Below are positions 1,153 to 64,000 of a DNA stretch of 64,000 bases, in pieces. The stretch is from Leucoraja ocellata. Its lineage: Eukaryota. The first letter of the stretch is position 1; each line of letters begins with the position of its first letter. The notes under the pieces were generated by a model that was given only the letters and a program-made list of their open reading frames with translations, was not told the origin of the DNA and ran no database searches. Location of the stretch: NCBI GenBank assembly GCA_036785375.1, contig JAWMAR010000462.1:1054001-1118000 (forward strand). Direction: 5' to 3'. The position numbers were made by a program, and so were the translations under genes.

Positions 1153-2719
1153 ATACTCACCTTTGAGCCTGAAAGGCAGAGGTGCAATTCCTGCTCCAGG
1201 AATCCAAGTACACAAATGAATGCTAACAGTGCTGAGAGTGCTGAATCACTGAACAATTAGTACACAAAATATATTTTAATCATTTACTTATTGGTGTACT
1301 GAGAATGTAAGATTACATTTAGTTAGAATGTACAAGACTTTGGTGTGGTCACACCTGAAGTGGATTGCTAGATTTGTTCTGAGATGGGGAAGTTGTCTAT
1401 ATAAGGTCAACATAAGGAGAGAGTGATTAGGTTGCACCTACAGGGTAGAAGTTTGAAGAATGAAAGACGGTCTCAATGATTGATAACATTCTTGGAAACA
1501 TTGTTCTGGTAGCTGTTGAGACAATATTTCTCAGATTTAAAAGTTTAATCAGGATAGAAGGTTGACCAAGTGAACCTAAGATGAGGAGAAGTATTGAGAG
1601 GGTTGAAATTCATTTTTTCAATTCTTTACCCCATGCTGCCTGTGGATAATCAATTCATGAATGCATTTACATCGGAGATAGATCTTTGACACCAAAGGAA
1701 TCTGGATCTACTTGTGACGACCTAAAGGTGCCAAAAATTCTAAGGCATCATTCAAATATGTGCAATAGAGTCGGGGCCAATATTTATCTCCCAGCTAAAG
1801 TCAACATAGCTGAAGAAGGGTCTCAACTCAAAACATCGCCTATTCCTTCTCTCCATAAATGCTGCCTCATCCAGCATTTTTGTCTAACAGATGATCTTGT
1901 CAGTTAGTTTGATCGTACTGTGACCAGATTAGCTCCATGTTTCATCCATCATCACAGTACCTTCACTTGAGTAGTACTTCAGCCTAATTATCTGTTGCTG
2001 GAAACATCAAACTGTGTGGATAGAAATTTCGAACCCGGGTCTCTAACACTGTAAGGCAGCAATTCTACCGCAGTGCCACCATGCTGCACACATTTTTTCT
2101 CATTCAGCTTCCAGACATGGTCACTGATTCATTCTTGATATAGCTATTAGCACAGATACACTTTCAGTAGATATATTTTTTGGGAGCAGACTTTCCACAA
2201 CTCATTGCCAAAGCACTGCCCTGACTTTCACCTTGGCTGCACCTGTCGGGATTAAATCTGCAAAATTTATGGTCACATGGTTCAGTTATACTTCAAGCAT
2301 TTCTTCTAATATATACTCTTTATGCTTAATTGCCATGGGAAGTGAATCTTAGATCATTTTTAGTAATGTAATAACAGGAATTGGTGTTCAGTCTCTTGAG
2401 CTTGTTATGTCAGTCAATTAGATTCTGGCTGATCTATACCAGCTTGAGTGGCTTAACTTCAATTACAGGGTTATGCACCACCAAAGCAAAGCTCTTTTCT
2501 TTAACCCACCTGAAGCAACACACCTGCTTGTGACCTACTTAAAATTGAGCGCACAAAACTTAATAATGACAGTCTATTAAAGTAAACTGCTTTCTGCCAT
2601 GTGATTAAAAAAAACTTCAGCCTAGGTACGGTATCCGCTTTTAATAAGCTGTGAGAAATAGGGGAAGAGTGACGGTGATTTGAACACGAGTGTGTGTGTG
2701 CGCATAGAGACACAGAGCT

Positions 2720-6235: not shown

Positions 6236-9200
6236 CATGTTCTTTAACAATGATACAAGGACAAGAAGGGTTTAGAGGGTTATGGGCTAAATGTAGGCGA
6301 ATGGGATTATCCCCAAATGCCAACTTGGTCAGCATGGACATAGTGGGCTAAATGGCCTGTTTCTGCACTGTATAGCTCTATGACTATCGACTTTTGCTGA
6401 AGGGCTGGTTAACTAATGCTCTGTTGCAGATTCTCACAATGTAACTGCATTGTGCCTCAGACTGTTTCAATCAAGCTCCTTTGGTCAGTCGATGAGATTT
6501 AGTTCCATCTTAGCCACTTCCAATTGCGACTGCTTGTTTTTTGCTAAATTGTGCTCATGTTTCTTCAATGTCTCTCCAATTGACTTTAATTTATTTTCTT
6601 GTCCTCCACACATTTAAGTTCATTCAAAACTCTGCCAGCTGTATCTCAACTCTCAGACATCAACTCCATCAATGCATCAACAATATTCCTTCTTTGTTGT
6701 CGTTGACAGCAACACTGTCAAACAGGAACTTTGACAGCAACCGTGTCGAACAGGAACTCAATCCAAAACGTCACCTATCCTTGTTCTCCAGGGATGCTGC
6801 CCAACACCTCGAGTTACCCCAGCACTTTGTGTCCTTTTGTGTATAAACCATCATCTGCAGTTCATTATTTCTACAGGAAACAACTCATCCCCCTCTCATC
6901 TGTCCTCAGGTGACAAATGCCCTTCTCAATGCAATTGACAGGATGACTTTCAAACAGTGGATGTGAATACTCAAAGAAAATTCACACAAATTCACTCTGA
7001 ATGGCTACTGTGAAAAATTTGCTGATAGACAAAGGTCAAACAATTCAAACTGGAGCAAATATAAAAGTTTCAACTAATTTGCTGGAGAAACTCAGTGGGT
7101 CAAGCAGAATATGTGGATTGAAAGAGATGGTCAAAATATTGGGTCAGAACCCTGCATCAGGAGCCCTACGCGAGTCCTGATGCAGGGTATCAATCTGAAA
7201 TGTCTTCCCCTGCATGGATGCTTCTCGACTTTCTGAGCTCCTCCAGCAGATTCTAGCATCTGCAGTCTCTCGTGTCTTCATTATAACAACTGAACAGGGG
7301 AACGAGTTACAATCTGGCAACATGTGCCCTAGAGAGCATATTCAATCATTGCACAACATCATTTGGAGAAAACTAGTCTTCCATACTTGCATCCAACTCT
7401 GAGAGTCGTTGGCAGTACGGTTTTAAAAAACAAGCCAAGAAATCAGAATATCAGCCAAACGTAACACAAACACATACATACTCCAGGAAACACAGCCTGT
7501 AAATTCCAAACGTTTTTGTCACAGCTCGGGCTCATGCAACTTAGTATGGGTGTAAAGAGGGTTCAATATCCTACATAGACTATAAACCATTTCTATTCAT
7601 TGTACATCTTGCCTGTCTGATGCCCATGTCTGTGACAGTCTTCTTCAAATGTCTCAATTCCACCCACCACCACCACCACCCTCCCCATCCATCCCCTCTT
7701 TAACCAGTAAATCAATCTGATCCTTCATTTAATTTTACTTGTATTGCAACACAGTTTTTAGGTCAGCACTACTCAGCAAATTAGTGCATTTACTAATATA
7801 AAGTAGAAACCAATATGCACATAGCAAACAGACACAAAACACCAATGTAACTATGATAAATCTGTTCTTTCCCCGGCACTGGAAAGGTTAATGGAACATC
7901 GGTAGAACAACACTAGCTTTTTACCCCCCCAGAATTGTTCACTTGGATCTTTTGAATCCTTCTCAAAGGAGAGAACAGGCCTAGAACAAGCTTCATCCAA
8001 AAGGCAGCACCATCACCAATCTGGTAAACTCAGTCAGGCAATGGGGCAATTTAAGCGACCTTCAGTCACTTAAATCCATGGGGAATAACTTCGACCCGTT
8101 ATCCTCCCAGTCAGAAACTAAACTGTTGAAACAAGGAACTGCAGATGCGTGTTTACAAAAAAAAAGACACAAAGTGCTGGAGTAACTCAGCAGGTCAGGC
8201 AACATCTCTGGAGAACATTTTCTCCACAGATGCTGTTTGACCCACTGAGCTACTCCACCACTTTGTGTTTTTTTCAGAAACTAAATTGAACCCTGCCGAG
8301 AACCAGGTGAACTGCTCAAACTTGTTGCATCCACTCCCAAGACAGTGCTATTAAAAGATGCTCCATCTAAATTACTTGCAAAACCTTCTCCCTTCAGTCC
8401 AGTTCCTAAGTATGTAATCACAACAATTTTAGCAGAGCAACCATGGTGGAATACTCGCATTTGCCTGCCCGGTAATTTATTAATGTTTGCAGTATGAAGA
8501 ATGAGGTTGAGAGGAGATATGGGAGGACAAAACCTTGAAGGGTTCACTTTGGGTAGAGAACAATAGTTCCAATGGTGGAGGATTTAATGACCACAGGGCA
8601 CAAATGTAAAATGATTGTAAAAGATTGAGGGGTGTAAACTAGCAGTTTGTACCTGGAATGCTCTGCTTGTGAGTGTGTTAAATGCAGATTCAGTTATAGT
8701 TATCAGAATGGAAATTATTAAATATTTGAAGACCAAAACCAATGTAAAGTTGTGTGGGAAGCACAAGACACTCAGATTGAATGGATTGCTCTGCAGAGAG
8801 CAGGCACAGGCTTGATGAGATAAACGTCCCCATGCTGTTCCAATTCTTCTATCCTGAAAGTACTTCAGGGTTCAGTAATATCAACCGAAACACTTATGCA
8901 GAGTCACAGGCGTTGCTTCCTTGATCCAGAAATGTACAATGCTGATGCATGGTCTGGGACCACAGCTGCATTTTTTAGCACTGAACCACATGTATTGGCC
9001 TGAATGATTTTGAATTTTTAGCACTGAACCAGATGTATTGGCCTAAATGATTTGTGCTTGGGTTTCTAATTCACTGTAGACTACATCTAAATCTCATTCA
9101 TTCACCTCATCAATATATCCAGCTGATGAAAGCTTACTGTTTCACATTGATAACTAAATCCCTCTCAACAAATGCTGCCTGATTTTGTGAGTTTGCCACT

Positions 9201-16080: not shown

Positions 16081-18257
16081 TTAGGCAACTCAAAATTTGT
16101 GGATTAAGCCATTTGGCACCACTCTGCCCAATTTATCAGCATTCTATCCCGTGTACATAAGCACACTATCCTCATTGTCTACAATTTCACAAATCTTTGT
16201 GTCATCAGCAAAATCACTCACCAAACCACAGACATTCTCATCCAATTTATATTCAAGACAAACAGCAAAAATCCCACTACCAATTACTGCAGTACACCAC
16301 AGGTCATAGAATTCTAGTCACAAAAACAACCCCCTACCTGCCTCGTATAATCAAGCCAATTTTAGATTCAATTTACCAAACCATCTTGGATTCCAAGTGG
16401 ACTAACTTTTTTATCTAACTTTCCTCAAAAGTTACAGCACTTTCAGAATAATTCAGTTGAATTACGTCATAAATTTCTTTTGTGCATTCACTTTTAGACA
16501 TAATTTAAAGATATGCTTCGTTGCTTTAACTCTTCAAGCTTAATGCCCATTAATTCTTACATCTGTTAAACAAACTTGAATTTAAACTAGACTGAATGCA
16601 CTTGAATTTAAATAAATTCTCATCAAACTACTCAAATATTTCAACGCATTCTTGGGAAAAAAAAACATTTACAACTTCGGGAAGGCAAGAGTGCGAGAAA
16701 GACACCTGGATGCGTCCCCGATCTTCAGACAGTGCCATTGGATTTTCTTTATGTACGTGCATGAATGTATGAGCGACAGCAGTGCTTGGTACAGCAATGA
16801 TGTTTCAACCCTCAAAAAGGATTCAAAATGTATTCAGGTTTACTAATTCCCCAGATCTAATGACCACGTTATCAAACATCCACGTACTTGGGAAGGTTTT
16901 ATTTGACGTACAAAAATAATATTAAATTTGGTTTAAAATTAATACCACAAATGAACCTGATTTCCTCTTGCCATCAGATGATCTGGCCAATTACGTGTAA
17001 TGATCTTCTGCTATCGGATGCAGCAAAGATACACTGATGCCTGAATAACCCATACTTCACTTTTTAACGAGTATGATTCATGTTGATTGCATCAGTCGCT
17101 TTTCAAATAATATTAGCTTGAATATCCAAGCTGTATCATTCTCCCTGGAGACGAGCAACATTTTTGGCCAAGCACAACTTGTGGAAGCCGTTCTTAAGTT
17201 ATCACAGTGAAGAAAGATTTCATGATATACCATTTTAGTTTGTAATTAACACAAAAAAAACATCTTAATTAGATTTAGGAACAAATACATCAGAAGGATT
17301 TAACTGTGACAAATGTCTTTAATGAAATCAACTGCAGCATGATTTTTAAGTGTTTTGGGGGGGTTTAAAGATAACACCAGATATTAAAAGTCTCTCAAGG
17401 ACTGTACAAGTCAATTTAAAATGGATACGAGTAAGGTTTGTTTACTGGTCTGCACAATTAGGTTATCGTGCCCTCTATAACAAACTCCAGGAGGAGGCAC
17501 ATTTAACAATTGTTCATTACTGGGCTCTAATCAGAATGTAAGCATGGTGTAGAATTTAAATGTCAGCAGAATACACGTTGCCCAATTTGTGATCAGGTGA
17601 GTCTTGTTGCTTGCAACTAAAACTCCTCCTCATCTTTTCAACCAGGATTATGATCCAAACTAACATTTCAAAGGAGAATTTCTTGTTTTGACAGTTAAAA
17701 ATCACAAATGCAATTAGCCTGTAGCACGGTGCTAAAATGAGCTCCACATACAGATGCTTACAACAAATAGGGCGTCAGCATTACATAGAATGACTTGGCT
17801 TTTCAGCAAATGAACCGTATCTAATTAACCCAATTCTGTATATATAATTTAGATGCAATTACCATGACTAATTAACATGTTACCTTTAATAGCAGAACAA
17901 TTATATGACCCACAAGGTTCGAGTTTGGAGTCACTAATTTAAACATATGAAAAGCTGTTTACTGGGAGAACAGATGCTCTACCCTTCCACTGTTCCTAAT
18001 CCTCAAAGTGGTTTTATCACTCTCAGTGCCAACCTGAATGCTCCTTCACTACTTTGAAGAATCAGGACCCAGGCATCAATGAAGATGTTGCTATTTTTGA
18101 AGGAGACTCTTTGAACATCTTTCATTCTTTTCCTTCATCCACCATGTAATCTCTTACCAAAAAGAGCTTGGAACTGAGTGTTTTATTCAGCAATCTGTGG
18201 TTGTGCATTGGAATGTCAATTATGCCAGTTATACCAGTGGATACAGAGGATGCTTAA

Positions 18258-18650
18258 GAAAGAACTGCAGAAACTGGAAAAATCGAAGGTGGACAAAAAT
18301 GCTGGAGAAACTCAGCGGGACAGGCAGCATCTATGGAGCGAAGGAATAGGTGACGTTTCAGGTCGAGACCCTTCTTCAGACTGATGTGGGGGTGGGGGGG
18401 GGGGGGCAGGAAGAAGAAAGGAAGAGGTGGAGACAGTAGGCTGTGGGAGAGCTGGGAAGGGATGGGGAAGGAGGGAGAAAGCAAGGACTACCTGAAATTG
18501 GAGGTCAATGTTCATACCGCTGGGGTGTAAACTACCCAAGCGAAATATGAGGTGCTGCTCCTCCAATTTGCGGTGGGACTCACTCTGGCCATGGAGGAGG
18601 CCCAGGACAGAAATGCCAGATTCGGAATGGGAGGGGGAGTTGAAGTGCTG
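18258..18650 (-). mobile_element. Penelope-like element 3' end with hammerhead-like motif
   Basis: EEQHLIFRLGSLHPSGMNID. CTGAAGAAGGGTCTCGACCTGAAACGTC at 18352-18379 on the minus strand. Confidence 0.85.
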
Positions 18651-18654
18651 AGGA

Positions 18655-23450: not shown

Positions 23451-24792
23451 CTGTGGAGATTAAAGCAAAAAGTCCATTGACACAGTGAATCAAACTGATT
23501 CCTAATAGGTAAATGCAATATCACAAAGTAAGCATTACTTACATCATTTAGACAGTTTGGATATCCTAACACCATCACAAAAATTTTACAACACTCCAGT
23601 TGTTACTTTACTAGCCTTTATGGAGAAGCAATAAAATTACCGAACCACTTTCCAAAATTAGAAAGGATTCCATGACATGTGCTCTGTCAATACATCCAAA
23701 GGTTGATTACGTGTTTGTTAGAACTTGGTGCAGTATACTAGCCGATGAGTTTCCTACAGCATGACTAAAATTGTACAATGGTTGTACAGTGCTTTGGAGC
23801 AGGCTTTTGCAAGAGCAAATGAAATTGCTTTACAAGTACATGCATTCTTTTACTATTTTAATTGGCAGTAGATGAAAAATGAGGAGGAACAAGATCACAA
23901 TCATGCCACATCTGAAGTTAAGATGGTGGGGATAGGATGCCGGGGTTGAGCTGAGAAATGCGAATAAAAATTGGAAAACAGCCTTCTGGAGAGAGAGGCA
24001 GATTCTATCCCAGCGTTTTTACAATGAAAAAGTCAAAAGCCCGAAATGAAAAATGCTCATACTTAAAAGGGGAAAAAATGTCTCCACCATAAACAAATTT
24101 TCAGATTTTAAGGGACAGCAGTAAGCCGAGTACCAGTAAAACAGCCCCTCACAACCTGCAACTTTCCGTGTTTGCGCAGCTGCCAGGTATTTCTGCAGGC
24201 AAGTTTCAAGACTTAGAACTTCAAGGCTAAGCTGTACTTATCACAAAATGTTGCACAGTTAATCAGAAAACATAAGAAAGCTTTTTAACCAAGGAACAAA
24301 ACACAAAATGCTGGAGGAACTCCGCAGGTCAGATAGCATCTGAGGAGGAAATGGACAGCAATGTTTTGGGTCGGGACTCTTCTTCAGACTCCTTTCCCCC
24401 CTCCACTGATGCAGCCTGACCCGCTGAGTTCCTCCAGCACTTTGTGTTTTGCTCAAGATTCTAGCATCTGCAATCTGAAATTCCTTGTGTTTTTTCTTTG
24501 CCCAGGATACGGCTTTGCAAAATTACAATTCAGTTCACTGCCATAAACAGCAATATGCAATGAACATGACATCGAAATCTATTAAAATGGGAGCAAAGAG
24601 AATCCACTGTGAAATGTAAATAGTGAAGAACTAGTGAAGAACTAGAGATGAAGTCTTTCCGAACATCGACAGAACACACTGGATTTTCATTCCTTCTTTA
24701 AGACTTCCTATGACTAATTACAATTCAATGTGCATCCAGAGATTTAAGAAGATAATCTAACCCAGCAGTCCCAATGCAACATGTAATAACAA

Positions 24793-26373: not shown

Positions 26374-26475
26374 GTCTGAAGAAGGGTCTTAGCCCAAAAC
26401 GCCACCCATTCCTTCTCTCCAGCGTTGCTGCCTGTCCCGCTGAGTTACTCCAGCATTCTGTGTCTACCTTCTTCT
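26374..26475 (+). mobile_element. 102-bp PLE-derived short element with 13-bp TSD
   Basis: TGAAGAGAATTCA (26361-26373) versus TGAAGACAATTCA (26476-26488). Starts GTCTGAAGAAGGG. Confidence 0.75.
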
Positions 26476-30549: not shown

Positions 30550-30663
30550 GGGTTTCGGCCCGAAACAGAATCTGAAGAAGGGTTTCGGCCCGAAACGTTG
30601 CCTATTTATTTGGCTCCATAGATGCTGCTGCACCCGCTGAGTTTCTCCAACACTTTTGACTAC
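30550..30663 (+). mobile_element. 114-bp PLE-derived short element with duplicated hammerhead half and 11-bp TSD
   Basis: CCACAAAATGA at 30539-30549 and 30664-30674. GGGTTTCGGCCCGAAAC occurs twice in tandem. Confidence 0.8.
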
Positions 30664-31845
30664 CCACAAAATGATATTCATTGTAGAAATAGACTTACTT
30701 TGGACTCAAGAACTCCAATAGTTTCTAACTATTGTCTAAATCTAGATACGTTATACTTTTAGAAACGCTTTCAGATACACTTGTTTTGTTTTATAATGAA
30801 TAGCTTGTATGTTCATGACCAGTGTTACACAAATTCCACATCAGCAAAGAGAGTTTAATTCAAATTAATAGTTCAAACTAAGTTTGATTAAGTGGTTGTA
30901 AGTCTTTAAGAATTAGCTTTGAACTCTTTTCATGAACAGCTGTTTGGTGAAGAACAACATTGATCCTAATGCCGCATTTTCTCCAGATACTTGGTGAATG
31001 TAAGCCTAAGTTCATCATTGTAGACTTTGGAACAAGATGGCTACTGAAGTGATTTGCTCGATGAATCAATCATTGATAGTGGTGGTCCAGTTTGTCATCC
31101 AAGATAATTTGCAATCTGCCCTCTGATGCAGGAACGGGAAAACAAAAGATGGGAAGGCAGGAAGTGAATTTTTTAAATGACACCAAAGAAATCAAGGGAA
31201 GTTAGGACATACACCATTAAAACAGCCATGATCTTATTGAATGGCCGACTCCTGATTCTATTTCTTAAAAGATACAAACTTGAAACGGGAAAGTAGGGAA
31301 TATAAGCAAGTAGGAGATGGATGAAAGAAAAGGAAAAATATAAAGAAAATGAAGCAAAGAACTAGAAATTAGACCTTAATGAATAATTAATACAATGAAA
31401 AAACAATTATATGAAGCAATATTCTTGACTTCCACTTCTCTTTGTAAAACTATATTGGTATAATTTACAAAAAAGGATACACTTTCAACCATCTGGTCTT
31501 TGATGCAAATATCCTCGAATCAGATCTTTAAAATTTTTACAATGAGTTCTCTGTTCTAAAGTCCCATTCTTCCTTTCATAACCTGTCTCCTTTGAATATG
31601 CAAAATCTATATTGCCATTAATGGCATAAGGCTAACCTCATAACTGTGAGAGTTCACTTTTGATGACAAGGGACTACAGTGGTATTGAAGGCAGCAAGAT
31701 CCATGTTAATTTTTCACTGAAAGCCAGGAGCAGCCTTGGACGCACTACACAAGGCATCCGTGAGACAAGAAGAATTCAGCAAAGACAAAAATAATCAAGT
31801 CATAATGAGTTCTCATTTATGAATTCACCATAAGTGTCAGCTGAT

Positions 31846-32292
31846 CTACATCGGTGAGACCAAGCGTAGGCTTGGCAATCGCTTCGCCCAACACCTCCGC
31901 TCGGTTCGCAATAACCAACTTGATCTCCCGGTGGCTCAGCACTTCAACTCCCCCTCTCATTCCGAATCAGACCTTTCTATCCTTGGCCTCCTCCATGGCC
32001 AGAGTGAGGCCCACCGTAAATTAGAGGAGCAGCACCTTATATTTTATTCTGGTAGTTTACACCCCAGCGGTATGAACATTGACTTCTCCAATTTCAGGTA
32101 GTCCCTGCTTTCTGCCTCTTTCCCCATCCCTTCCCAGGTCTCCCACAGCCCACTGTCTCCGCCTCTTCCTTTCTTCTTCCCGCCCCCCTCCACCCCCACA
32201 TCAGTCTGAAGAAGGGTCTCGACCCGAAACGTCGCCTATTCCCTTCGCTCCATAGATGCTGCCTCACCCGCTGAATTTCTCCAGCATTGTCT
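31846..32292 (+). mobile_element. Penelope-like element 3' end (GIY-YIG C-terminus, 3' repeat, hammerhead motif)
   Basis: Open YIGETKRRLGNRFAQHLRSVRNNQLDLPVAQHFNSPSHSESDLSILGLLHGQSEAHRKLEEQHLIF...GMNIDFSNFR*. CTGAAGAAGGGTCTCGACCCGAAACGTC at 32206-32233. Confidence 0.9.
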
Positions 32293-38659: not shown

Positions 38660-41600
38660 CTGTTGAATACAAAAAGACATATAGAATTGAAGTATTCTTT
38701 ACACATCACATTATTGTGCAGCAATTGCACCATCTCTCTCCAAGGCCACTGTCCAAGGCCTAACCATATCATTCATTAATGTGGTGTCTAATCGACCCTA
38801 ATGTAAGCTCCAATCATAAAAACGTCCTATGATCAAGACCATCCGTTTCCACCACAAAAACACGACCCATCTCCAGTCCTGCCTCAGACCAGACACTCCT
38901 GGCCAACTTCACATCTTCTGCACTCACTCAAACTAATCGAAAGCTCTGAAGTCCATTTCGTGACTAGCATCATTACTACCACACAACTGCTTGGATTTGT
39001 GGAACGTCCGTGACAAAATAATTTCAAAATAAAAACCAGAAATTGTCAGAAACAATCGTTAGCTAGCCACATTATTAGATATTACAATAGATGACCAAAA
39101 ACTTCAAACATGCAAGTTATAAGGAGATGGAGCATTTTAGGAAGAGATCCCAGGGCACCAAGGCAGAATGATCAAAAGTATTCTCGCCTGAAAATCCACT
39201 TTAAGATTTCATAATTGTCATGTTTTATTTGACCCTGAAGGATCTTCAACCACAGAATCGCCTGGTGACCTCCCAATTGCAACTTTTTAATAAAATTTTC
39301 CTTATGAAAAATAAGAGATTAAGAGGCATCACAGATGTTTCAGTTCTGGTAAAAGAAGTCTGGGCGAAATGACTCAACCTTTCACATCGATTCACATCTG
39401 CAATTCTAAATCTCTGCATAGAGATGAAGAAAATTATTATATTTGTCAGGATAAAAGAAAAGCTTTAATTTGAACCAACGTCTGTTCTTTTTCAGGATGA
39501 ATTAAAAAACTGTACAGCCAATAAAATACCTTCGAAGAGGAGTTCAATATTGCAATACATGAAACTGGAAGCAAATAGGAACACAGCTCACTCTAACAAT
39601 GATTAGATTACATATATTTTTAGTAATACTTACTGGACTGAACACCAGGGCCAACTCAATGCAATAAAAAGGAACTGCGGGTGTTGGTTTATACCAAAGA
39701 GAGACATAAAATGCTCAGTGAGCCAGGCAGCATTTCTGGAGAAAATGGATAGGTGACGTTTTGGGTCAGGACCCTTCTGAAGGGTCACCGATCCATTTTC
39801 TCCAGACATGCTGCCTGATCCACTGAGTTATTCCAGCATTTTGTGTCTACCAGAACTGAGTTGAACACAGTGCACGTGGGTCCATGACTGAATGTCTCAT
39901 GAAATTGTAGACATTCCCTCTGTTGTGCATTGTGCTCAAGACTTAAGGATGTGGGTTACATCCTTAACATTACCCAACTGAAATAGAACCAACTGCGCTT
40001 ATGCGGATCTTCGTAAGGACTAACGACAGATATGGGGATTGAAAAGGTTCAGAGAGATTGAGGCCAAATGCAAGCTAATGAGACTAGTCCAGTATGCCAA
40101 CATGGTCGGCATGGACAAGGTGGACTGAAGGGCCTGTTTCCGTGCTGTACAGCTCTTTGACTTTATGATTCTGAAATCATAGATGTATTCAGTTGCAAAA
40201 TGCCTCCACTGTGCAGGGTAGAGACAATATTGCAGCCATTCTGGTCAAATTAATGGTGCAGGTGGAGGTGGTAAATAAATTGTACTAATTTAGAAACTTA
40301 CTTCTCAAACTAGCATCAAACACCCACAGAAAACTGCGCTGTAATGTGTGCGCTGAATCTGTAAGGCCCTCTTCCTTCTGTTCCTGGAGTTTATGTTCAA
40401 TAAACTGGCATAACTCTGATCAAATGTCAGCAACAGTTAAATCATTTCAGGCATTATTTTGTGACTTCAGGCAGTGTGGTGCTGTGTTTCTGCACTGTGA
40501 TTATAATCCAAAAATATATATCAGTGGAAATAGCAGGGAAACAGTAAAGAAAACTCACATCAAAAATAAAATATTAATGTCGAGGAATTGGCTGAGAAGC
40601 AGTTTCTAGAAGATGCAGCTGTTTTCATGAGACAACAGAGAGCAGAGCAGCTGGTTCTCATCATTCTCAGAGAGCCACAGTAATCATTAAGCAACCTTCG
40701 TCTGGAGGTTATGCCCTTGCTGCACCATTGAACATTACGTTGATGAGACCTATTAACACCCATTATGTGTCACATAAGCTTCAGAAGCAATCAGACCAGC
40801 GTATAAACCAGGATAAAATTGGTACCATTTACAAGTGAACCACTTTTCACGTATTATCTACTGCTTGAAGAGAACTGCAATCCCGAGTAAAATAAGGCAA
40901 ATGCAATTAATGGTGGAAGAATTTCATTACATAGAATTTACAGCACAGCGAAAGGCCACGTTGTTTAACTACTCACTAACATTTATGTTCCTTGTGAACC
41001 CATCATTATTCTTCATTCAACGATATAAACATACCTTTCTATTCAATTGTTGATCATGATCCAGCTTAAATTTCCCCTTAAAGGCATCTTGATTTAATTG
41101 CTTCTATTCCTCCATGCGGTTGAGTTAAACATTCCTAATCATAGAATTACAGAGCATGGAAACTGTTCCTTCGGCCCACTGAGTGTGTGCTGATTGGCAA
41201 ACACCATCACTAATCTTTCTCTCAACCAATTTTATTCTCCCCATTTTCTCATCAACTCCCAATTCGACCACCCAATTGTACACATTTTACAGGACAATTA
41301 ACCTACCGACCACTCTTGATAGAAATAAATTTCCGAATTAGTCATTGAATTTTAACTATTATATATTAACCACTCCCAATTACAGACTGCACGCCAGTTT
41401 TTAGGTTCCTTCAATCATTCTGTTATTATACTACAGCATTTTAAAAAGTGTGATCAATATTTTTTTTGATTGTTCCTGCTGTAGAGCACATCACACTGCA
41501 TAACATGAGCAAACAGATTAGGGGGGCTATATTCCAAAACAGACTGCATAAGAGAGGGGTAGAAGAGTAGCTTGTTGAAATGAATCTTTAATTAACGTGG

Positions 41601-44600
41601 CAGGATAGATGATTAATGCCAATGTTAAATTCTCTTGCGAGCTAATTGAAAAATCTTATGGGCATCAAAGGCAACAATTAATGTGAACGGGTGCCGAGAT
41701 TGAAGAAAAAAACATAACCAATCTGAGACACAATTGACGGCAGATGTTGCAATCTGGAGCAAAAGAAACAATCTGCTGGAGGAACTTGCAGATTGAGCAG
41801 CATGTGTAGGGTAGAGAATTGTGACTATTTACTCGATATCCCGTATCCGGAGGGGGAAGATAGTCAGTATAGAGGGGACAGGACGGGGCGGCGGACAGGG
41901 GTGAGGGAGGGCACAGTTGGTGACAGGTGGACAGGATGGTTGTTTGAAGGAAGATGGAGCCATGGGGTGGGTAATGGAGAGACAGGGGTAGACAAAGTGG
42001 GAAGAAAAAGGGCAGATAAAGCCATCAGGGCACAGGAGACAGTGAAGGTAGACAGTTGTTAATTATCTCTTTAATTTTGTAATAGCAAGCTTTAATCTCT
42101 CCACCTATATTCGTTCCTACACAATCCCTTGAATTGTATTCAAACTCAGATAAAACTTTGTAACACCACCCAATCTGATGCGATTGCTGGGAATTTCTAT
42201 AGCATAGCAATGAAACTCCAGACCGATGAGGGGGTTCTTCATTTGGAATTTTAATAAAGAGGAACCATTTTTGTTCTTTATTCAAGGAAGAGCTCCAAGC
42301 AAATTCAGTCAATTTCACTGCACAGTTATGGTTCCCATAATAAATTCCATATTCTGTCCTCTTGTGTGCTCTGGTGCAGGAAGATATTTGATTTCAGTTG
42401 CAGTCTTGGTTATCTTTATGGTGTAGGATTATCCTAGCAATCTATTTGTACACTTTGTAAACGCTGAATTAAGTTTGGAAAGTATAACACAATCATACCA
42501 ACGCTTTGTCATGTCGAATTAAACAGGAATTCTGAAGACTCAAATAATAACAGCATCTGTTTTCAATTTTGTTAAAAGCTAAAGGAAATTAGGGTGGTGT
42601 AAAGATTGGAATATAGGTAATTTTATCTTCCTGTAATAACTTAATTTGTTAAGCACTAATTATTATTACAAAAATCAGAGAGGATATGCTATTTGGATAT
42701 GGATCAAGAGTATTATAAAATTCCAAGAACTGATGAACTGATTTAAAAAAAATGATTTCATGCAAATCAAACAGTCGAGCACAGTATACTGAAACATAAT
42801 TTCCTTTCAAATGATATAAACAAAACCTTGCTCAAAACAAAGGGTTGGAGGAACTCAGCAGGTCAGGCCATATTCATGGAGAGAATTGATAGATGACGTT
42901 TTGGGCCAGAAGCCTTAGTATCTTCTTACTGTTTGCTAATAATCTGAACAGAAATTAATCCGTTCATATCTTTTGTTTCTTCATATTTATGACGAGAGTA
43001 AATCATGCCCTCAGAAATCAATCAAACCCTTCCACCAATATCCCAATGCTCCCGCTGATCATGTAGTTTGCATGGATTACCTGATATTTATCAATGAGTT
43101 AAACATAAATGCTGGAGTCACAATCAAGAGATTTACAAACCATGCAAGAATTGGCCAGATGGTTGTCAGAAATTATCTTGACCAGGGGAACATGTTAATA
43201 GATTGTTGAAGAAGGGTCCTGACCCGAAACATGCTAAAGGAATTCAGTCAAAAGAACCATGAAGTAACGAACCTGTGGAGGGCAAATAAAGTAAGGGAAT
43301 GCACAAGAGAAGTCTAGCTGACCAAATGGGCCTTTGGCTGTGTGCCTACAGATCCCTGAAGATAGCATGGAAAGAGGATGAAATTGTTGAAGTAGCATAC
43401 TGAGACGGGGAAGATAAAAAGAGTAACAAAGGTAAAGACTACTTAGACCATAACTAGTCAGCATGCATAGCTCGGATTGTCACGAAACAGGAACAGTGAG
43501 ATACCATTATCGAGGGTGCAATGGAGATCTACAGGATGCCGTCAAGACTTCAGCTAGGAGAGAAAAATCGAACAGTCTAAGCTTCTTTCCCTTGGAACAA
43601 AAACAGCCAAGGGGGGATTTAATTGAAGCGCACATAATTACATGGATTCTAGACAAAATGCATGGAGAGAACATATTTCCTTTTGTAGGAAATAACCAGT
43701 GAGAATAGATTTGAGGGAAAAACAAACTGCCGGAGGAACATAGCGGATCAAGCAGATATGTAGAGGGAAACGGAGAGACGATGTTTCACGTGCGGACTCT
43801 TCATCAGATTTGAAGTTGTTCAGAGGAGCATTAAAGTGAAGAATAAGTTAGAAATCACTGCCTGAAAGGGTATTAGAGTGCAAAGTACTTGCATATCGAC
43901 TTGAATATTAGATGCAACTTACATTCCCTCAGGCATATACATTTCCTTTCAAAAGAAATGACCAAAGCTATTTCCAATAGCACCACAATAAATATAACAA
44001 GTACTCACATGAACACTGAAACCCAACCAAACTGCACAGCCAGTACAACATCGGCAGTGTGATTTTGGGCGGTTTGAGATACAATGGGATTGAAAATGAA
44101 ACCCTGAGGCTTATGCAAGCACAACGCACAACCATCATGCGTTTCCATAGTAATCTCGCAGATGCAGTTATGGAAGAAATCATCCGATTAAAAATACAGT
44201 GGAGTTCTATTTCAAAAATGATTCAGGATGCTAAGCTCCACAGGAATATTGTGAGTTGTTTACCAATGAAAAGCAAAGTCAGACATTGATTTTCAATTGT
44301 TTGATTAATTGGTTTTGCCCTTTTGCCGAGCACAATATACCAGTGAAACAGAACATGTTCAATGTACTCAGAAGTCAAGTTTGCAAAAGGTCTCTATTGA
44401 ACCTCTGTTTTTCATTTACAGAATGGCTGGTGATCAGAAGGAAAGGCCTTTGGACTGAATTCATGTAAATATATGCATACCATAGCAATTTATTCTGCAA
44501 AGCTTTTTCATGACTAATAATGACAATACATTAACAATTCAATATGACTCCATCAAAGAACACGTATGGCTCTTCAATTTGACATCCAAACGTAAGACAG

Positions 44601-44639: not shown

Positions 44640-44789
44640 GTAGACACAAAATGCAGGAGTATCTCAGAGGGACAGGCAGCATCTCTGGAGAGAAGAAATG
44701 GGTGACGTTTTGGCTCGAGACCTTTCTTCAGACTGATGTCAGGGGAGTGGGCGGGACAGAGATAGAATGTAGTCGGAGACTTACCTACA
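44640..44789 (-). mobile_element. PLE-derived short element with degenerate 16-bp TSD
   Basis: CAAGTAGTTCTGTAAG (44624-44639) versus CAAGTACTTCTGCAAG (44790-44805). Degenerate CTGAAGA...AAACGTC motif on the minus strand. Confidence 0.7.
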
Positions 44790-51948: not shown

Positions 51949-54900
51949 GGTTTAGGAGTAGATTTGGAACAAGATCCAGATCTTGCAAGAAAACGAAAAA
52001 GGTATCCACTTTTTTCCTCAGGATGAAAATGGGACTCTTTTTTATGAATGGCAGATTCACAAAACTGTAATATGAATACGATGTAATCTTCACGTAATTG
52101 ATAGTGTTCTTACGGTTGCTTGAAATACAATAAACTTTTATAGCAAAACATGCAAGATTCTGGAACAATACATGTGTATCGTAACAACGCTATAGACCGA
52201 GCTACTCAAATAAAAGGAATTTCACTCCTTTAAAATCATGGAAGGCACAATGACATCTGTTACTGCGCAGCTAATACTGTCACAGAAATCCTCTAATTCA
52301 GAAAAGTGCCAGCATCAGCTTTCTATTCTTTAACCCTCAGATTACTGGCAGGGAATATAAACACAGATGTGAGCAACATGAAATATTTCACAAAATGTCA
52401 TGTGAAACATACTTGATTGTTCTAACCTATTATTTCCAAGAACCATGTTTTCAAAGATTGCATCTTCAATTAAAATGAGTTGTCAAACACTGGATTATTG
52501 CATTACTGACATTGAGCAGAGGGTTGAGGGCTGGGAGGTGGTAAGGGCAAAGGAAGTTCAGATATGAAATGCAAGAGTGGAAAATGAGTAGCAACTGGTA
52601 GATTCGAACCATAAGTACGAAATGTTATTCTTGATAACAGGCAATGGTCAACAAGTGGCTCACAGCTCTTGGACACTGGTGACATCTTCAGTCTAAATCA
52701 AAGATCTTTACTATAATCAACAGAAATACCAAACTACTTTACCCACTTGGTCAAGCTTTTCATTGTATGTTCTGATGACTATTCATAATTTTTTTTTTAA
52801 ATCAGTAAAAGCTTATCTGATACCAAAAGGGCCTCAAAACAGCCATCTGTTAAACAATCTGTTGAATCAATAGTTTAATTTCACTCTGGAGCAGTCAGGA
52901 TGAACACCCCATGTATATCCTGTAACAATGACTTGAACTAAAGACAAAAGAGCCTGCACTTGCTGGAATCTTGAGCAATAATCAAACTGCTGGAGGAACT
53001 CAACGGATTAAGCAGCACCCGTGGAGTGAAATGGACAGACGATGTTTCAGGTTGAGACCTTTCAGCCTTGGTAATTATCTATATGGCCAGACTCATCTGC
53101 CTGTCACACAGTTCCTTCCCCTTCCTCCTTTGACTCCAACTGCTCATCACCCAACCCTTCCTAATAATAATAATATATTTTATTGTCATTGCACATCAGT
53201 GCAATGAGATTTAGTATGCAGCTTCCAACCGATGTAAAAGAAAAGTAAAATAAATAAATAAGCTGTGTGACGTGACCATCCGAGGGATTACAGTCCAGGG
53301 GGGGTGGGGGGCACTCAGCAGGGCAGGTTCAGAGCCGCTATAACTCTGGGAATAGCTCCTTACTTTGGCTTCCTAATTTTTCTTCCCTCCCAACCACCGT
53401 CCCCTTCTACTCATCCCCACCCCCCACCCCACACTCCAGTTCTGCAATTAATTCCCCAATCCCCAACATTCTTTCTTATCAGATGATACAATTTGCACCA
53501 TTTTGTCTTCTCCACTTGAGTCTTAGTACTTAAGTCTACCCTACCTTCCCCCACCCGACTCATCTGTTAATCAACCCCTTCTTACCTGGATCCACCCAAC
53601 ACTTGCTAGCTCTTGCCCCACCCAATGTCCTCACCTCTTTCCACAAGCTATCCCCTTCTACCCCATCAGTGTGAAGAGGGGCCTCGACCCGAAACATCAT
53701 CCGTCCATTTCTCTCCACAGATGCTGCCTGACCCACCAAGTTCCTCCAGCAGTTTGCTTTTTGTTGAATGTTATTAATTAAATTGTTCTATCAAATTTAG
53801 AGATTCTTTTGTCTTTTGGGCAGCAGTATTGTTCCTCATTCACTCTCCAAGATACCATGGATAACTGGTAATTTAAATAAACACAGGCAATTTTTTTTTT
53901 TACAATGGCTCACTCTACAAAGACAGCTTCAGATCTGCAACAGTATTGAAACACAGTTGTTGATCTCATTGGTAAAGTATGAAGCCCGAGGTAAAACTAC
54001 CAGAATAGAATGGTGATGAAATAGTTTCAATTAACATTTTATTCAATGCCAGAATTGGGGATTGCATGAAACACTGCAAAACTTTCCATGTTGTGCTTCA
54101 AGAAGATTGATTACACTAGGATAAAGTCTGTTCCAAATTCTTTGATATATTGCACCCTCAGAGCTTTCAAGAGGTTCCTTAAGTCTCTACATGCGCGAGA
54201 GCAGGAGCTTTCTTTTCGTCAGTAACATGCACACATGCATCACAATGTTTTCCTAATCAATGCACATACAAATTTCAGGCGACGTTGATTCAATATTGTT
54301 TCATGTAAATAACTAGGCAGGTCTATGTGATACACTTCAACAAAAATAGCTCACAGGGTGCTGATTCTTTTCGACAGTCATCCAATTCAAACACGACTTG
54401 AAAAATAGTATTCACAAAGTTAGTGAGATCCAAAATGCCTAGCATCCTATTAATGTTACCACCTACAAAAACAAAAAGAAGAGAGCTGGGGCAACAAAGC
54501 AATTAACACTTCAACTCCTGTTATTTACCTTATCACTCAGAGATTTCATCAACTAGCAATTAAAAATCAATTAATGACAGATTAAGAAAACCGAGCAGGA
54601 CTCAGAGACACAAGTTTATATCATCCAACTGATCTGGCATCTTCCAGAGAGCCTGTAAAATAGATTGCAAGTAGTGATAGAAACTAATAAAATAATTTAA
54701 GAGAGAGCTAGGCAAATTTCAGGCAGCATTAATTCAGTATTGTTTCATGAGATGGAGGCAAAAAGATAATACTTGGCCCAAGTTACCTCCCAATCTGTTT
54801 CGGATTGGCTTGCAGCAGAATTCTAGTCTATTGCCCATTCCTTATAATGGGCGTTTTCCAACTCTTAATTCCGTCTCTCCTGGAGATAATAAGGTGGCAA

Positions 54901-58900: not shown

Positions 58901-59427
58901 GTGTTTCCTGTTGCTATTTCACATTTTTTTCTCCTGTAATTGCAACCTATCCTTGTGCTGTCAGTACATTCAGTCAACATACGTTCAGCACCTTCATGCA
59001 ATTAATTATATAAAATGTTAAAAAAAAAACAGAGATGCCAGCAGTAATCCTCACCAATCCTTGAGGTTCACCAACAATTACATTCCTGCCAATGGGAAAA
59101 AGATCCATTTATGCCTTATTTAGCCAGCAAATTTTCAATCCATGCCATGCTGCGAGCTACACCATATGCTTTGGTTCTGCAATGACTCCATGCAGCACCA
59201 AATGCCTTTTAGAAATCTAGGTGGAGTAAATCCACCAATTCACTCTTATCCATAGCATATTATTTATTTTGTTCTATAAAAAGTCCTCAAATGTTATTTC
59301 CTTTCCATAAAACCACATTGACTTTGCCAGATTGCCTTGAATTTTCGAAGTGCCCTGTTATAATATGTTTATTTATAGCTTTGAACATTGACCAAAGCAG
59401 AAGTTAACAAGGCTATAATTTCCTGAC

Positions 59428-59524
59428 GGTACACAAAATTGTTGGAGAAACTCAGCGGGTGCAGCAGCATCTATGGAGCGAAGGAAATAGGCGACGTTTC
59501 GGGCCGAAACCCTTCTTCAGACTG
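59428..59524 (-). mobile_element. 97-bp PLE-derived element with perfect 13-bp TSD
   Basis: ATAATTTCCTGAC at 59415-59427 and 59525-59537. Confidence 0.85.
59493..59520 (-). ncRNA. Minimal type I hammerhead ribozyme-like core
   Basis: CUGAAGA-A-GGGU(UUCG)GCCC-GAAA-CGUC: both conserved boxes, helix II capped by UUCG, self-complementary ACGU in place of helix III and a GUC triplet. Helix I is weak. Confidence 0.6.
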
Positions 59525-61149
59525 ATAATTTCCTGACTTCTGCCTCTCTCCCCCTTTAGAAACCACAAAGATATCTGAAAGGTCACCTTTTTCCTTTTAC
59601 TCACTCCAGAATAAATCTCGTTATGTTATTTGTGCACCATTGCATTAACTCATCCTCACACTTGCACCAATATTTTGCAGACAGAATTTAGTTGAACAGC
59701 AACACTGAAAACCTTGAGATATTTTGGCTAGAAGCTATTGTGCAAGATTACACCCAACAGGAGACAGCAAGGTTTCCAAGCGTAGTTCAGCACTGACTGT
59801 ATAGTACAAACAACAATGTACAACAATCCTCTTTCCTACTTCAAGAATTAATATATTTTCTCTTTGCATTTGAAGCAATTGGGGGCGATTCTTAACCTGC
59901 TCAGTCTCTCCTCATTTGATTGAATTGCATCCCACGAACAGTGTGATAATCTTCATTGCACACCCTCTGTAGTAAATAGTCATATTTAGACAACGAGTTG
60001 GAAAGTTGTGTCCAACATTCCAGGTGTGATCACATCAAATGTTATTTTTAATTGCAGTAAGACCTCCCAAACCTGAATATAAAATCCTCCAGTATTAAAT
60101 GTCAGTAAATAATTTACCTTCCTAATACACATGCATATGTATTTGAACTTACGTTCCCAAAGCACTTGTGAGGAAATGCAAGATATGAAGCTTACCTTAG
60201 CTGAAAGCTTATCTGCACAAGGCAGTGTCACACAAACAGGAATTAGGTTGTCCAAAATTTTAGGAATCTCTTGGAGACAGATGTTAGGAATGCAATGTTA
60301 ATCCCCAGGCTAAAGTAACCTGTGAGGAAAATCACAGGTCAGCAATGTAATTGTGGTTTCTTTAAAACTTATTTTCATTATACTAGGACTGGAAGTTAGC
60401 TTAGGGAGTAGGTTGGGGGTAGGGGGAGGGACAGGACAAACAAGGCTGTTTGGCAAGGTAAGACTATATGGGACAAAGGTCATACGATAAAACCACTTAT
60501 ATAGATTCAAACCCGTTTGGTGAGGTGTGAGGTATTGGAAAGGAGACTGAGAACGTTACTGCTCTTCAAAAAACACCGACCAGATTTTGTTTTAAAGCAG
60601 CAACAGAACCAATTTCTGGTGAATGCGCAAACTTTGCACAGTTATCACTGGATATTATGATTGAACGTGGGACTCTTGAGCTCTGTAGCTGCAGCTATAG
60701 ATGATGCCCCACTATGTCACCCATAACTATAACTGTTCCCCATGGAGTCCTTCCTGTAGCATGCATCAGCACCACATCCTTCTACATATCCTCTTGGATG
60801 TTTGAGTATGTTGGTCCACAGCAATCGTTTCATCAAAGGATGAATATATTATGCTCAGATCAAGCGGCTCACCGTGGAGCCGTGAACAGAGATTGTAGGA
60901 TTCAACGTTCAGAATGTCAACATTGTGGCAAGCGCGCATTTAAACTGGTTGCAATATTTCACAAAACCTTTCCGATTCCTTTTTTTTTTACAATTTTGAA
61001 AAACCTATCAAAGTCCAAATCCCATTGGAAATATTAGCAAGTCAAAGGGCAAATACCCTTGAAAATGATGCAGCCAACAATTGCCTGGATTTTTAAATTT
61101 TTTTTTAAAGAGAGAGACGATAGAAATAATAGGTCTCGTGCCCCACCAA

Positions 61150-61400: not shown

Positions 61401-64000
61401 TTCCACTTCCATCAAGTACTCATACATTCTATCCTGCCCTGCACTAATCCCATTTTATTCTCTATACATTTCCATCTACATACTCGGGTGAAATTTACAA
61501 TAGCCAATTCCCTACAACTTGGGTATAGGATGAAACTTGTGGAGAATGTGAAAACTCTACACTGTTAGCCCTAGAGATCAAGTTTGAACCTGGGTCTTGA
61601 GCTGTCAGGTGCAGATCTACCAGCTGCCCCACTGTGCCACTCATAATTTAACATGGCATACAAAATCATCAGCATCATCGTTGAAAACAGTGGCGCTGGT
61701 TTTCGATGGGAACGGTGGCGGAGGCACCACACATCTCTGTCCTCCAGTTCCTGCGGACTTCCGCCACTGGAGTATAGGATTTTGGTGTGTGTGTTTTATC
61801 ATCATTCCTTACAATGCTATGTACGTCAGTAATCAATCAATCAGTTTTATTCATCACACACACAATAAAGTGCAGTGAAATGAATTTGCCAGCAGCGGTA
61901 CAAACAAAAAAGAACACACAATACACAATCAAAATTTAACACAAACATCCACCACAGCATTCTTCACTGTGGTGGAAGGCACAAAGTAGTCAGTCCTCCT
62001 CCATTGTTCCCCCGTGGTCGCAACTTCTACTGAAGTGTGGATGGCCGTTGGCTCGCTAGAAGTTCATCCGCCCTTTGACAGATCTTGTTTTTGGTCCTGC
62101 TAGGGGTCCATAGCCCCCTCCTCACCTGGCAAACAAGGTGGGGAAGACGGTTTAGTCGCCGACTATCCGACCATGGAGCGGATAGCACGGGATTACATGG
62201 TACCCGTGGCGTGGGGGAACTCCCCCCGACCCGACCTCAATGGCATATATAGTTAAGGAAAAACAAGCTGCACATCATCAGTCTCCCCAAATTATTTTTA
62301 TGCAATTTCTGAAATAAAAGGACAAACATATTTTACCTGCTGAAAGAATGTCTGTCTTGGTTCCGAGTGCAACTTTCCTTGTGTCAGCAGGTTATGGGTT
62401 CACATCTCTACTTTTGCATAAACATCTTGGCCTACACTGAGGAAGTCCTAAATTGACAAAGTGTTGTCTTTTTAGGAAGAAGATAAGCAGAGATCTTTTA
62501 TGCCCACTCAAGTGGAACAAAATCTAGCGCTAAACACGTAATTAAAATGATGAATACAATGATTTTTAAATAAGAACTGGAGACCTGGAGCCAGGAATGT
62601 GGACAGAAACATGGCTGGAACTTGGGAATGGGTGCGTCTACCAGGTCAGTGGCTGAGATTGGGAGTTGGAAGTCAGAACATAGCCAGAAATATGGGAGGG
62701 AGGTACAGAGTGGCCAAGAAACAAATTGGGAAGCTGTGAGCCAAGAGTCCAATTGTGAGCATGACAGGACAGATAGTGCATGTGTTTAGTGGCACTTCAC
62801 ATGTACCCACCAATATTTGAGCATTAAATCCCACAGAGCAGACTGTCAAGACCTTGGGAAATTACAGAAATGAGACACGAATGACATCATAGAAAAGACG
62901 AGGAAGTGTTTGTCCTTCAACAGAAAATACGCACTAGATAACATAAAATTGCTTTACCCGTCATCCTAAGAAAAATGTCACAAACCAGAGCTGTGCAATT
63001 CTTAAAAACAATACCATGAAACGTTACCAAATGATTCACTACCCTGAGAACAGACACATTTAAAACAAAAGCAAGTGTGATTTTTCCACCAGTAGCATGA
63101 TAAATTTCCACTTTGAAGGAAATTACCCGAAATTCGGGAAATTCTGGTTGTCCAGGTAATTTTAGGGAAATGAAATAATTTTGGGAAATTTCCCAGCCCG
63201 GTAAGCCTCCCCTAACAGCGCATGTGCGACTGCCGCCCCAACTGCGGACGCGAAGGGGTCCATTCAGTCAGTTTACACAACTTTGAAGGGGCCTTCCATT
63301 TAGATTAACTGCACTGTGAAGAACTGCCAGAAAAAACGACTGATGCTGAAATATGTTGAATCAAGCACAAAATATATTTAGGGCATGAATTCCAAAGGAT
63401 GATGCTGGAGGATAGACAAAAATTGTTGGAGTGATATTTCGGGTTGGGACCCTTCTTCAGACTAAACAGGGATGTTCACTGGTGAGCAGCTGTACTGACG
63501 TGGACATTTAGGTGCCGTGGCCAAAGGGAGAGAAAATGCACCAGATGCTGAAGCAACAAATTGCTGCATTCATGCAGAGATATTGATAGCCAGGCAATTG
63601 CCTCTCGAGCTTTAACAACCACTTTGTCACAGTAATTAAAACTATGAATAACGTTGGTAAGAACTGCAGATGCTGGTTTACACCGAAGATAGGCATAAAA
63701 TGCTGGAGTAACTCAGCGGGACAGGTGTCTCTGGATAGAAAGAACGGGTGATGTTTCGGGTAGAGACCCTTCTTCATACCAGACTTCGGCTGAAGAAGGG
63801 TCTCACCCCGCAACGTTTTCTCAGTTGTCACGCCTATGCCGCAGTGTAATGGAATTTCAGGTGATCATCACCTACTTTTATTTGCTGAAGTGAGATAGTT
63901 GCTCTCTTGGAAAGTTTGAAACTGACTGAAATGCAATGTGAACTTGAAGCTTTCTGCCTTGGTAGAATAGTTTCACAATTTCCAACATCGTGCTAAGCTT

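Follow-up and report, generated by a model that had tools for sequence, protein, structure and literature searches.

The window, a 64,000-nt stretch of the 3.44-Gb Leucoraja ocellata genome that we searched for further copies, contains many insertions of a short unit that carries a predicted hammerhead ribozyme and belongs to a Penelope-like element (PLE) (Table 1). Positions are numbered from the C of the hammerhead CUGA box (+1); there is no position 0, and cleavage is predicted between +28 and +29. The four TSD-flanked inserts of the first-pass annotation were all recovered, as was the mutated GAAA box that it gave for the copy at 26374; the box of the copy at 44640 is mutated as well, which it had not recorded. 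Hammerhead units were likewise seen to terminate GIY-YIG fragments, as claimed, at 31835-32290 and 18256-18652, and the decayed copies placed near 1810, 12300, 43207, 53670, and 63790 are accompanied by about ten further ones in the window. For the 59428-59524 unit, five full-length matches are 100% identical (40 candidates scored, window copy included). Weak Rfam microRNA matches at 8174-8261 fall on an inverted PLE pair, and hairpins formed by such pairs may mimic microRNA precursors.

Table 1. PLE-derived features in the window (element coordinates carry a sign).
Feature	Position	Strand	Remarks
Short PLE unit, 97 bp	59428..59524	-	spans -4 to the "short" RT start at ~+93
TSD copy 1, 13 bp	59415..59427		perfect match to copy 2 (insert 59428-59524)
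TSD copy 2, 13 bp	59525..59537		first two bases, on the element strand, also match element -6/-5
Predicted minimal type I hammerhead	59491..59522	-	cut predicted between 59493 and 59492
Short unit, older family F2	26374..26475	+	starts at -2, TSD microhomology to -5; 13-bp TSD with one mismatch; GAAA box reads AAAA
Short unit	30550..30663	+	reached -1, then +25..+9 copied again (small template jump), leaving a second partial hairpin piece (+9..+25) on the 5' side; 11-bp TSD
F2 copy, cut off further upstream (~-51)	44640..44789	-	GAAA box mutated; 16-bp TSD with two mismatches
5'-truncated PLE: GIY-YIG end, C/T-rich 3' UTR, hammerhead unit	31835..32290	+	Pfam GIY-YIG E = 0.0054, weaker than the curated cut-off
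5'-truncated PLE with long tail, GIY-YIG fragment	18256..18652	-
Head-to-head inverted pair	63659..63816		arms end at -2 and +1
Inverted pair, decayed	24301..24472		one arm ends at -3
Inverted pair, decayed	8166..8264		source of the weak Rfam microRNA matches
Inverted pair, decayed	39714..39851
Decayed copy	1810..1872	+	start = +1
Decayed copy, older family	53652..53755	+

The hammerhead of the 59428 unit consists of CUGAAGA, an extra A, a 4-bp helix II closed by a UUCG loop, a GAAAC-GUC palindrome, and a 2-bp helix I. In its two boxes (CUGANGA and GAAA), the additional base ahead of helix II, the G10.1-C11.1 pair, the palindromic ACGU, and the NUH site (GUC or GUU), the PLE motif agrees with the solo minimal hammerheads of metazoan PLEs, which the accessible sections of PMC4209133 describe with the same core boxes, an unpaired base before helix II, G10.1-C11.1, a palindromic 15.2-16.2, and no helix III. 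The identification as a PLE minimal hammerhead made in the first-pass annotation is borne out by this layout, and the extra A that it had entered as a caveat is listed in those sections as a feature of such motifs. Helix I is given there as 4-5 bp in S. mansoni and 2 bp in D. virilis. An Rfam scan of the window returned zero hammerhead matches at E<=5, as expected for a motif without helix III, and two weak microRNA matches only. The probability that helix I pairs in predicted folds is 0.015-0.04, and a competing hairpin in the young family buries the GAAA box at equal predicted energy (-5.0 vs -5.1 kcal/mol). Stem changes between families are one-sided (U-G to U-A), with none two-sided, and differences among PLE copies fall mainly on CpG sites, which makes core conservation uninformative. 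Older PLE families have other helix II sequences (flank of L096; window 43784-43807, minus strand), and one has a longer possible helix I; these helices suggest that the 2-bp helix I of the young family may be a reduced form.

The genome contains 68,375 exact copies of a 37-mer that lies immediately 3' of the hammerhead, and 0 of its reversed control. Long copies extend upstream into an ORF with an RT, a Cys-rich linker, and a GIY-YIG domain; Pfam places RVT_1 (E = 5e-5) ahead of GIY-YIG (E = 0.003), both weaker than the curated cut-offs. The single ORF measures 1,221-1,239 aa and is open from its ATG in 8 of 20 re-fetched copies, with CxxxxCxxC and CxxC motifs ahead of IYIGET. A Cys-rich linker between RT and EN is described as a feature of EN+ PLEs (PMC8557442, accessible text), and it is on this linker, rather than on a tree separating Neptune from Nematis, that the Neptune-type assignment rests. 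In full-length copies, the hammerhead segment forms the 5' UTR, with the ATG at +165 and CUGA 164 nt ahead of it, and recurs at the 3' end ~3,950 nt later, beyond an ORF of ~1,221 aa. This partial-tandem pLTR arrangement was found in 18 of the 20 re-fetched ORF-bearing copies, with units mostly of 3,920-4,020 nt. The 100-bp units are the hammerhead-plus-tail segment of a young Neptune-type PLE. The proposal of the first-pass annotation that a PLE mobilizes them is supported.

Full-length units also occur in head-to-tail arrays with a spacing of ~3,950-3,985 nt (G000:C1:8664508-8677774 and G000:C8:5608885-5612858), which are possible read-through sources. Repeats diverge by 0.9% within an insertion and by 2.2% between insertions, a difference that does not discriminate circles from read-through. 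Two parts of G000:C1, at ~0.3-1.3 Mb and 1.9-2.7 Mb, hold the same insertions and flanks twice, mostly in opposite orientation (e.g., L055/L090, L058/L087, and L064/L083). The doubled region is a large duplication or an uncollapsed haplotype, and genome-wide copy counts include such duplicated insertions.

We determined 5' ends in the first 100 matches listed of a 3' anchor on contig C1; 97 of these were recovered with the 37-mer shifted by one base, and dropping 9 assembly duplicates left 88 copies, with the two arms of an inverted insert counted as two. The first 30 loci were excluded from these statistics because their query picks copies covering all 97 bases. Among the 88, 27 ends lie upstream of -15, 10 at -8..-4, 6 at -3, 14 at -2, 0 at -1, 10 at +1..+4, 14 at +6..+11, 4 at +29, and 1 each at +15, +23, and +31. 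Copies that reach +4 therefore end within -8..+4, around the hammerhead CUGA, in 40 of 67 cases, and the end rate there (0.050 per nt) is ~50-fold that upstream (0.0007-0.0019). The shared 5' boundary first noticed in a few window inserts exceeds chance by a wide margin and is a genome-wide property: ends are clustered along the PLE, where a random spread would have counted against it. The peak at -2 lies 30 nt upstream of the predicted cut. Exact copies of -2..+25 number 32,700 genome-wide, of which 14,758 also match to -10, and degenerate patterns find 4,631 copies ending exactly at -2 and 2,893 at -3. In the older family F2 (48 copies), targeted by none of the searches, conservation likewise drops between -2 and -6.

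The copies have two 3' ends, at +93/95 or 36 nt further on, at +130; the 36-nt tail is present in 35 of the 88. The boundary peak is equal for both RT starts (15/35 long, 25/53 short), so the boundary is positional and not a distance limit. All 37 head-to-head pairs in loci L001-L260 consist of one long and one short arm. These two regularities match the optional 30-40-bp tail known in PLEs (PMC8557442 and PMC3846280, in part) and the in vitro priming of the Anolis element Poseidon PAc (Frangieh et al. 2024, PMC11167929), for which the accessible text reports two internal RT starts ~36 nt apart that define the tail, extension of both target strands, uncleaved RNA as template, and a requirement for ORF-start RNA, namely the first 172 nt of the ORF. 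Unlike PAc, the element studied here is of Neptune type and has its RT starts in the 5' UTR rather than in the ORF; the sharp upstream stop, the ORF-start jumps, and the arrays were not found in the accessible text of that paper. The partial tandems, inverted 5'-truncated copies, and one-sided tails described for EN+ PLEs in the accessible parts of PMC8557442, PMC3846280, and PMC2377424 are all present, whereas truncation here is non-random, with the 40 of 67 ends confined to 12 nt, and the one-long-one-short rule is supported by a count. At the 5' junctions of short copies, 24 TSD-resolved cases show microhomology (13), extra bases (10), or a blunt joint (1), with 15 unresolved and 22 inverted. 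The extra bases amount to 0-23 nt and are often copies of nearby sequence.

Copies that include the ORF start were sampled with a 28-mer across the ATG, which represents one subfamily and has 323 exact genomic copies. The 79 loci parsed cover all but 2 of the 100 matches listed, and dropping 2 duplicates leaves 77 independent loci; L147 and L149, previously in the set, were not re-parsed, and the tandem arrays L261 and L272 were left out of the re-fetch. In 50 of the 77, the cDNA runs from +95 or +130 to a donor point and then resumes within the ORF start; 22 continue into the ORF, and 5 fall in neither class. One of the 22, L360, adds a jump from +5 to ~+2,600, for a total of 51. Landings lie at +187..+300 in 49 of the 51, where uniform landing would put 11% under +300 (landings below +182 are invisible by design), and 14 fall at +264..+270, a cluster that may be a protein footprint. 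The first 50 jumps have donors between -284 and +45; 10 of these lie at -4..+3 and 2 at +29/+30. Selected by the ORF start, this sample comprises <1% of copies and may be unrepresentative of ordinary stubs. No junction is common to two independent jump loci, which indicates that these copies are not the progeny of deleted masters.

Within one insertion, by contrast, junctions recur. They are letter-identical three times in arrays L275 and L281 and four times in L284 and L322, and identical on both arms of five inverted inserts (L292, L303, L325, L344, and L345). By hand count, templates whose first stop was at -4..+5 were never copied upstream of -4 in a later pass, while among 24 later passes on templates with a first stop at -22 or beyond, 20 ran through, 3 ended at +9, and 1 ended at +1. 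Stops at -8..+11 occurred in 54 of 81 first passes and in 0 of 18 full-length second passes (Fisher p = 7e-8). From the repeated stops and the read-through counts, the 5' stop follows the template molecule; L323 and L297 are discordant, their two arms having different stops. At L266, three different donors share a single landing, a pattern more readily reconciled with a linear RNA than with a circle.

The TSD-flanked mini-arrays are built from 180-340-nt units of PLE 5' UTR and ORF start (L275, L281, L284, L322, L264, L305, and L336; for example, G000:C13:10638900-10639900). Their junctions are identical, their unit number is non-integer, and several carry a whole hammerhead per unit; a complete hammerhead in every tandem unit was seen in rare jump arrays only, such as L264, L275, L281, L305, and L336. 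We considered several other origins for these structures. Unequal crossover can account for direct arrays, though not for inverted arms whose junctions are identical; fold-back copying fails for L292, L303, and L325, in which the further-running arm has no tail; and back-splicing as a source of circles is at odds with junctions that, read by eye, are not at GT donors. Some short joints go back and restart at the base of helix II, near +9 (L162:478-512; window 30550-30570); they give rise to partial hairpin duplications both in the L. ocellata genome and in a related organism.

The sharp boundary admits several explanations. One, raised in the first-pass annotation, is a discrete, non-autonomous RNA that is mobilized in trans. 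It would be ~100 nt long, resemble a SINE or a retrozyme, and have the short copies as its source of transcription. Such an RNA would account for the very high copy number, the sharp ends, the units' own TSDs (resolved in 24 of the 39 non-inverted short copies covered, the other 15 having no resolved TSD), and the uneven subfamily shares, with one letter combination found in 21 short and 4 long copies. However, each of the five letter combinations scored in short copies is found in long ones too, so that no private diagnostic changes mark a lineage of their own (a coarse test at three positions); 27 of the 88 copies continue upstream into PLE sequence; the extra bases at the 5' junctions vary; and the 5' end differs from the ribozyme cut. 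The templates that reveal their 3' side extend into the ORF, in a sample chosen for the ORF start. A separate retrozyme-like family is for these reasons improbable. Even less probable is that hammerhead self-cleavage defines the mobile RNA. There is a small excess of ends at the predicted cut, with 431 exact matches at +29 against 318 at +26 (~1,700 vs 570 after correction for pattern degeneracy), and 2 of the 50 jump donors lie at +29/+30. On reading by eye, though, ~40 of the 100 matches listed for +29 are fold-back palindromes or deletions of helix II, and once these are set aside the excess is ~two-fold; the -2 peak reaches ~8,000 by the same correction; helix I has 2 bp and a low predicted pairing; and in the young family the competing hairpin sequesters GAAA. 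Ribozyme cutting does not set the boundary, while cleavage may matter for full-length circles.

The other proposal of the first-pass annotation was a structure-defined stop. In a wider form of it, RT would stall just upstream of CUGA, at RNA structure, a C-rich tract, or a bound splicing factor, on ordinary 3'-primed templates. The boundary does fall at the 5' edge of helix I and at a pyrimidine tract with a CAG behind it that resembles a splice acceptor, as in D. virilis Penelope, and a second group of ends at +5..+11 (14/81) lies at the helix II base. We nevertheless regard a stall as unlikely, since in 18 of 18 cases full-length copies read past the -2 sequence, later passes stop where the first pass on their own template did, and few ends lie at the 3' base of helix II. 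The 200 upstream 7-8-mers listed, read by eye, have no exon sequence in common, which also speaks against a stall and led us to reject a spliced exon 1. The splice-acceptor-like C/T-rich tract ending in CAG (L162:340-470) occupies the position of the intron end in D. virilis Penelope; no spliced copy was seen among those inspected.

We propose instead that an autonomous Neptune-type PLE probably gave rise to the 100-bp units as abortive, strong-stop-like insertions, for which the 5' end of its RNA was the template. In LTR elements, minus-strand strong-stop DNA is primed near the RNA 5' end, and this short cDNA must jump to continue. The PLE units, too, are short cDNAs that would be primed near an RNA 5' end, and because priming is by nicked target DNA and not by a tRNA, the aborted product is left in the genome. 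The PLE protein would bind the RNA around the ORF start and prime cDNA at two internal sites, one for each target strand. On a large class of linear RNAs, the cDNA would then extend for 95-130 nt, until it met a physical 5' end near -2 and fell off; one primed end would yield a short unit with its TSD, and two primed ends a head-to-head pair, with junctions repaired through microhomology or a few extra bases. Long and full-length copies would come from templates that continue past -2, either read-through or circular RNA. From the jump events we infer that the segment copied is the one preceding the ORF, and not the 3' repeat from which the first-pass annotation had derived the units. The RNA end, the protein binding, and the circles of this model are all read from insertion structures.

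What would create an RNA end near -2 can be weighed from several observations. A transcription start has about an even chance of being the cause. The initiator consensus is YYANWYY, and the downstream element is RGWYV; TCAGTCT at -5..+2 fits the former, and GTYG lies at the spacing of the latter with one mismatch. A cap-like G at -3 precedes 44 of 100 of the -2 ends among the matches listed (~29 expected, p = 0.0015; the count includes duplicates and inverted arms) and 6 of 12 TSD-resolved cases, with no excess at -4 before -3 ends (30/100), so that the signal for an extra G is weak. Against a simple start site, which predicts some full-length copies starting at -2, none was found among those re-fetched. 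Poly(A) and single-cell RNA reads of a related organism show no pile of molecule starts: the unit is mostly a passenger in other transcripts, 76-94% of raw reads ran into unlike sequence, and loose ends lie before -3. A contig joint from +221 back to -1 in these data may be a transcribed genomic insert. In D. virilis Penelope, the start is 46 nt ahead of an intron of 75 nt whose end is at helix I (accessible parts of PMC2377424 and PMC4209133), that is, ~120 nt upstream, with the intron ending at the boundary position, which also counts against a start here. L308 and L322, moreover, suggest circles, and ligation could not form these from a capped RNA. Trimming in the 5'-3' direction up to a protein-bound hammerhead is a less probable origin of the end, and a splice-acceptor event is rather doubtful.

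The arrays call for an extension of the strong-stop-like reading that we advance tentatively, giving it somewhat less than even weight. The PLE RT would prime twice on one RNA near its 5' end, and fragments of 190-500 nt that span the hammerhead, the RT starts, and the ORF start would rarely be closed into a circle, or re-entered end to end, and rolled into nascent retrozyme arrays in a single insertion; full-length partial tandems would arise from unit-length circles. Rolling-circle copying of ribozyme-made PLE circles has been proposed previously (PMC4209133 and PMC6765202, in part), whereas the small templates here end mostly away from the cut. According to the accessible text of Cervera and De la Pena (2020, PMC7229834), retrozymes consist of units in tandem, and they have hammerheads of the canonical kind together with small circular RNAs. 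The rare arrays resemble these non-LTR retrozymes in their 180-340-nt units, whole hammerheads in several cases, and derivation from a PLE. The 100-bp units, in contrast, are monomeric (solo or head-to-head) and have minimal hammerheads with no Rfam match, a 2-bp helix I, and no helix III, unlike the canonical type I with its loop-loop contacts, and their main 5' end is not the cut that would bound a retrozyme unit. The accessible part of a preprint uses phylogeny to connect retrozymes with PLE repeats and proposes that they are amplified locally once inserted (Li et al. 2026, bioRxiv 10.64898/2026.07.22.740005); the arrays described here differ in having unique junctions off the cut site and appear to be born in one TSD-flanked event. 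The jump arrays suggest a second route to retrozymes, within one insertion.

Solo minimal hammerheads on truncated PLE ends are known, as are tails and inverted copies, and thousands of dispersed single motifs have already been read as truncated PLEs (Cervera and De la Pena 2014, PMC4209133); a mapping of the 5' ends of solo copies, as carried out here, was not found in the accessible sections of that paper. Our literature search, which covered titles and abstract openings, with subscription journals, Repbase, and supplements outside its scope, found no description of the fixed 5' end or of jump arrays. The 100-bp units are ordinary fossils and not a new mobile RNA, and their insertion record is unusually sharp and informative.

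PLEs are the closest mobile relatives of telomerase, and how they finish a copying round and how retrozymes arise from them are still open questions. In L. ocellata, tens of thousands of young insertions pin down the start sites, the template's 5' end, and, through the jumps, its 3' end, supplying exact coordinates for RNA-end mapping and in vitro testing. The rare looped-back arrays suggest how ribozyme-bearing repeats may be born. If the tentative reading with double priming and circularized fragments is true, the genome would directly record the PLE replication cycle.
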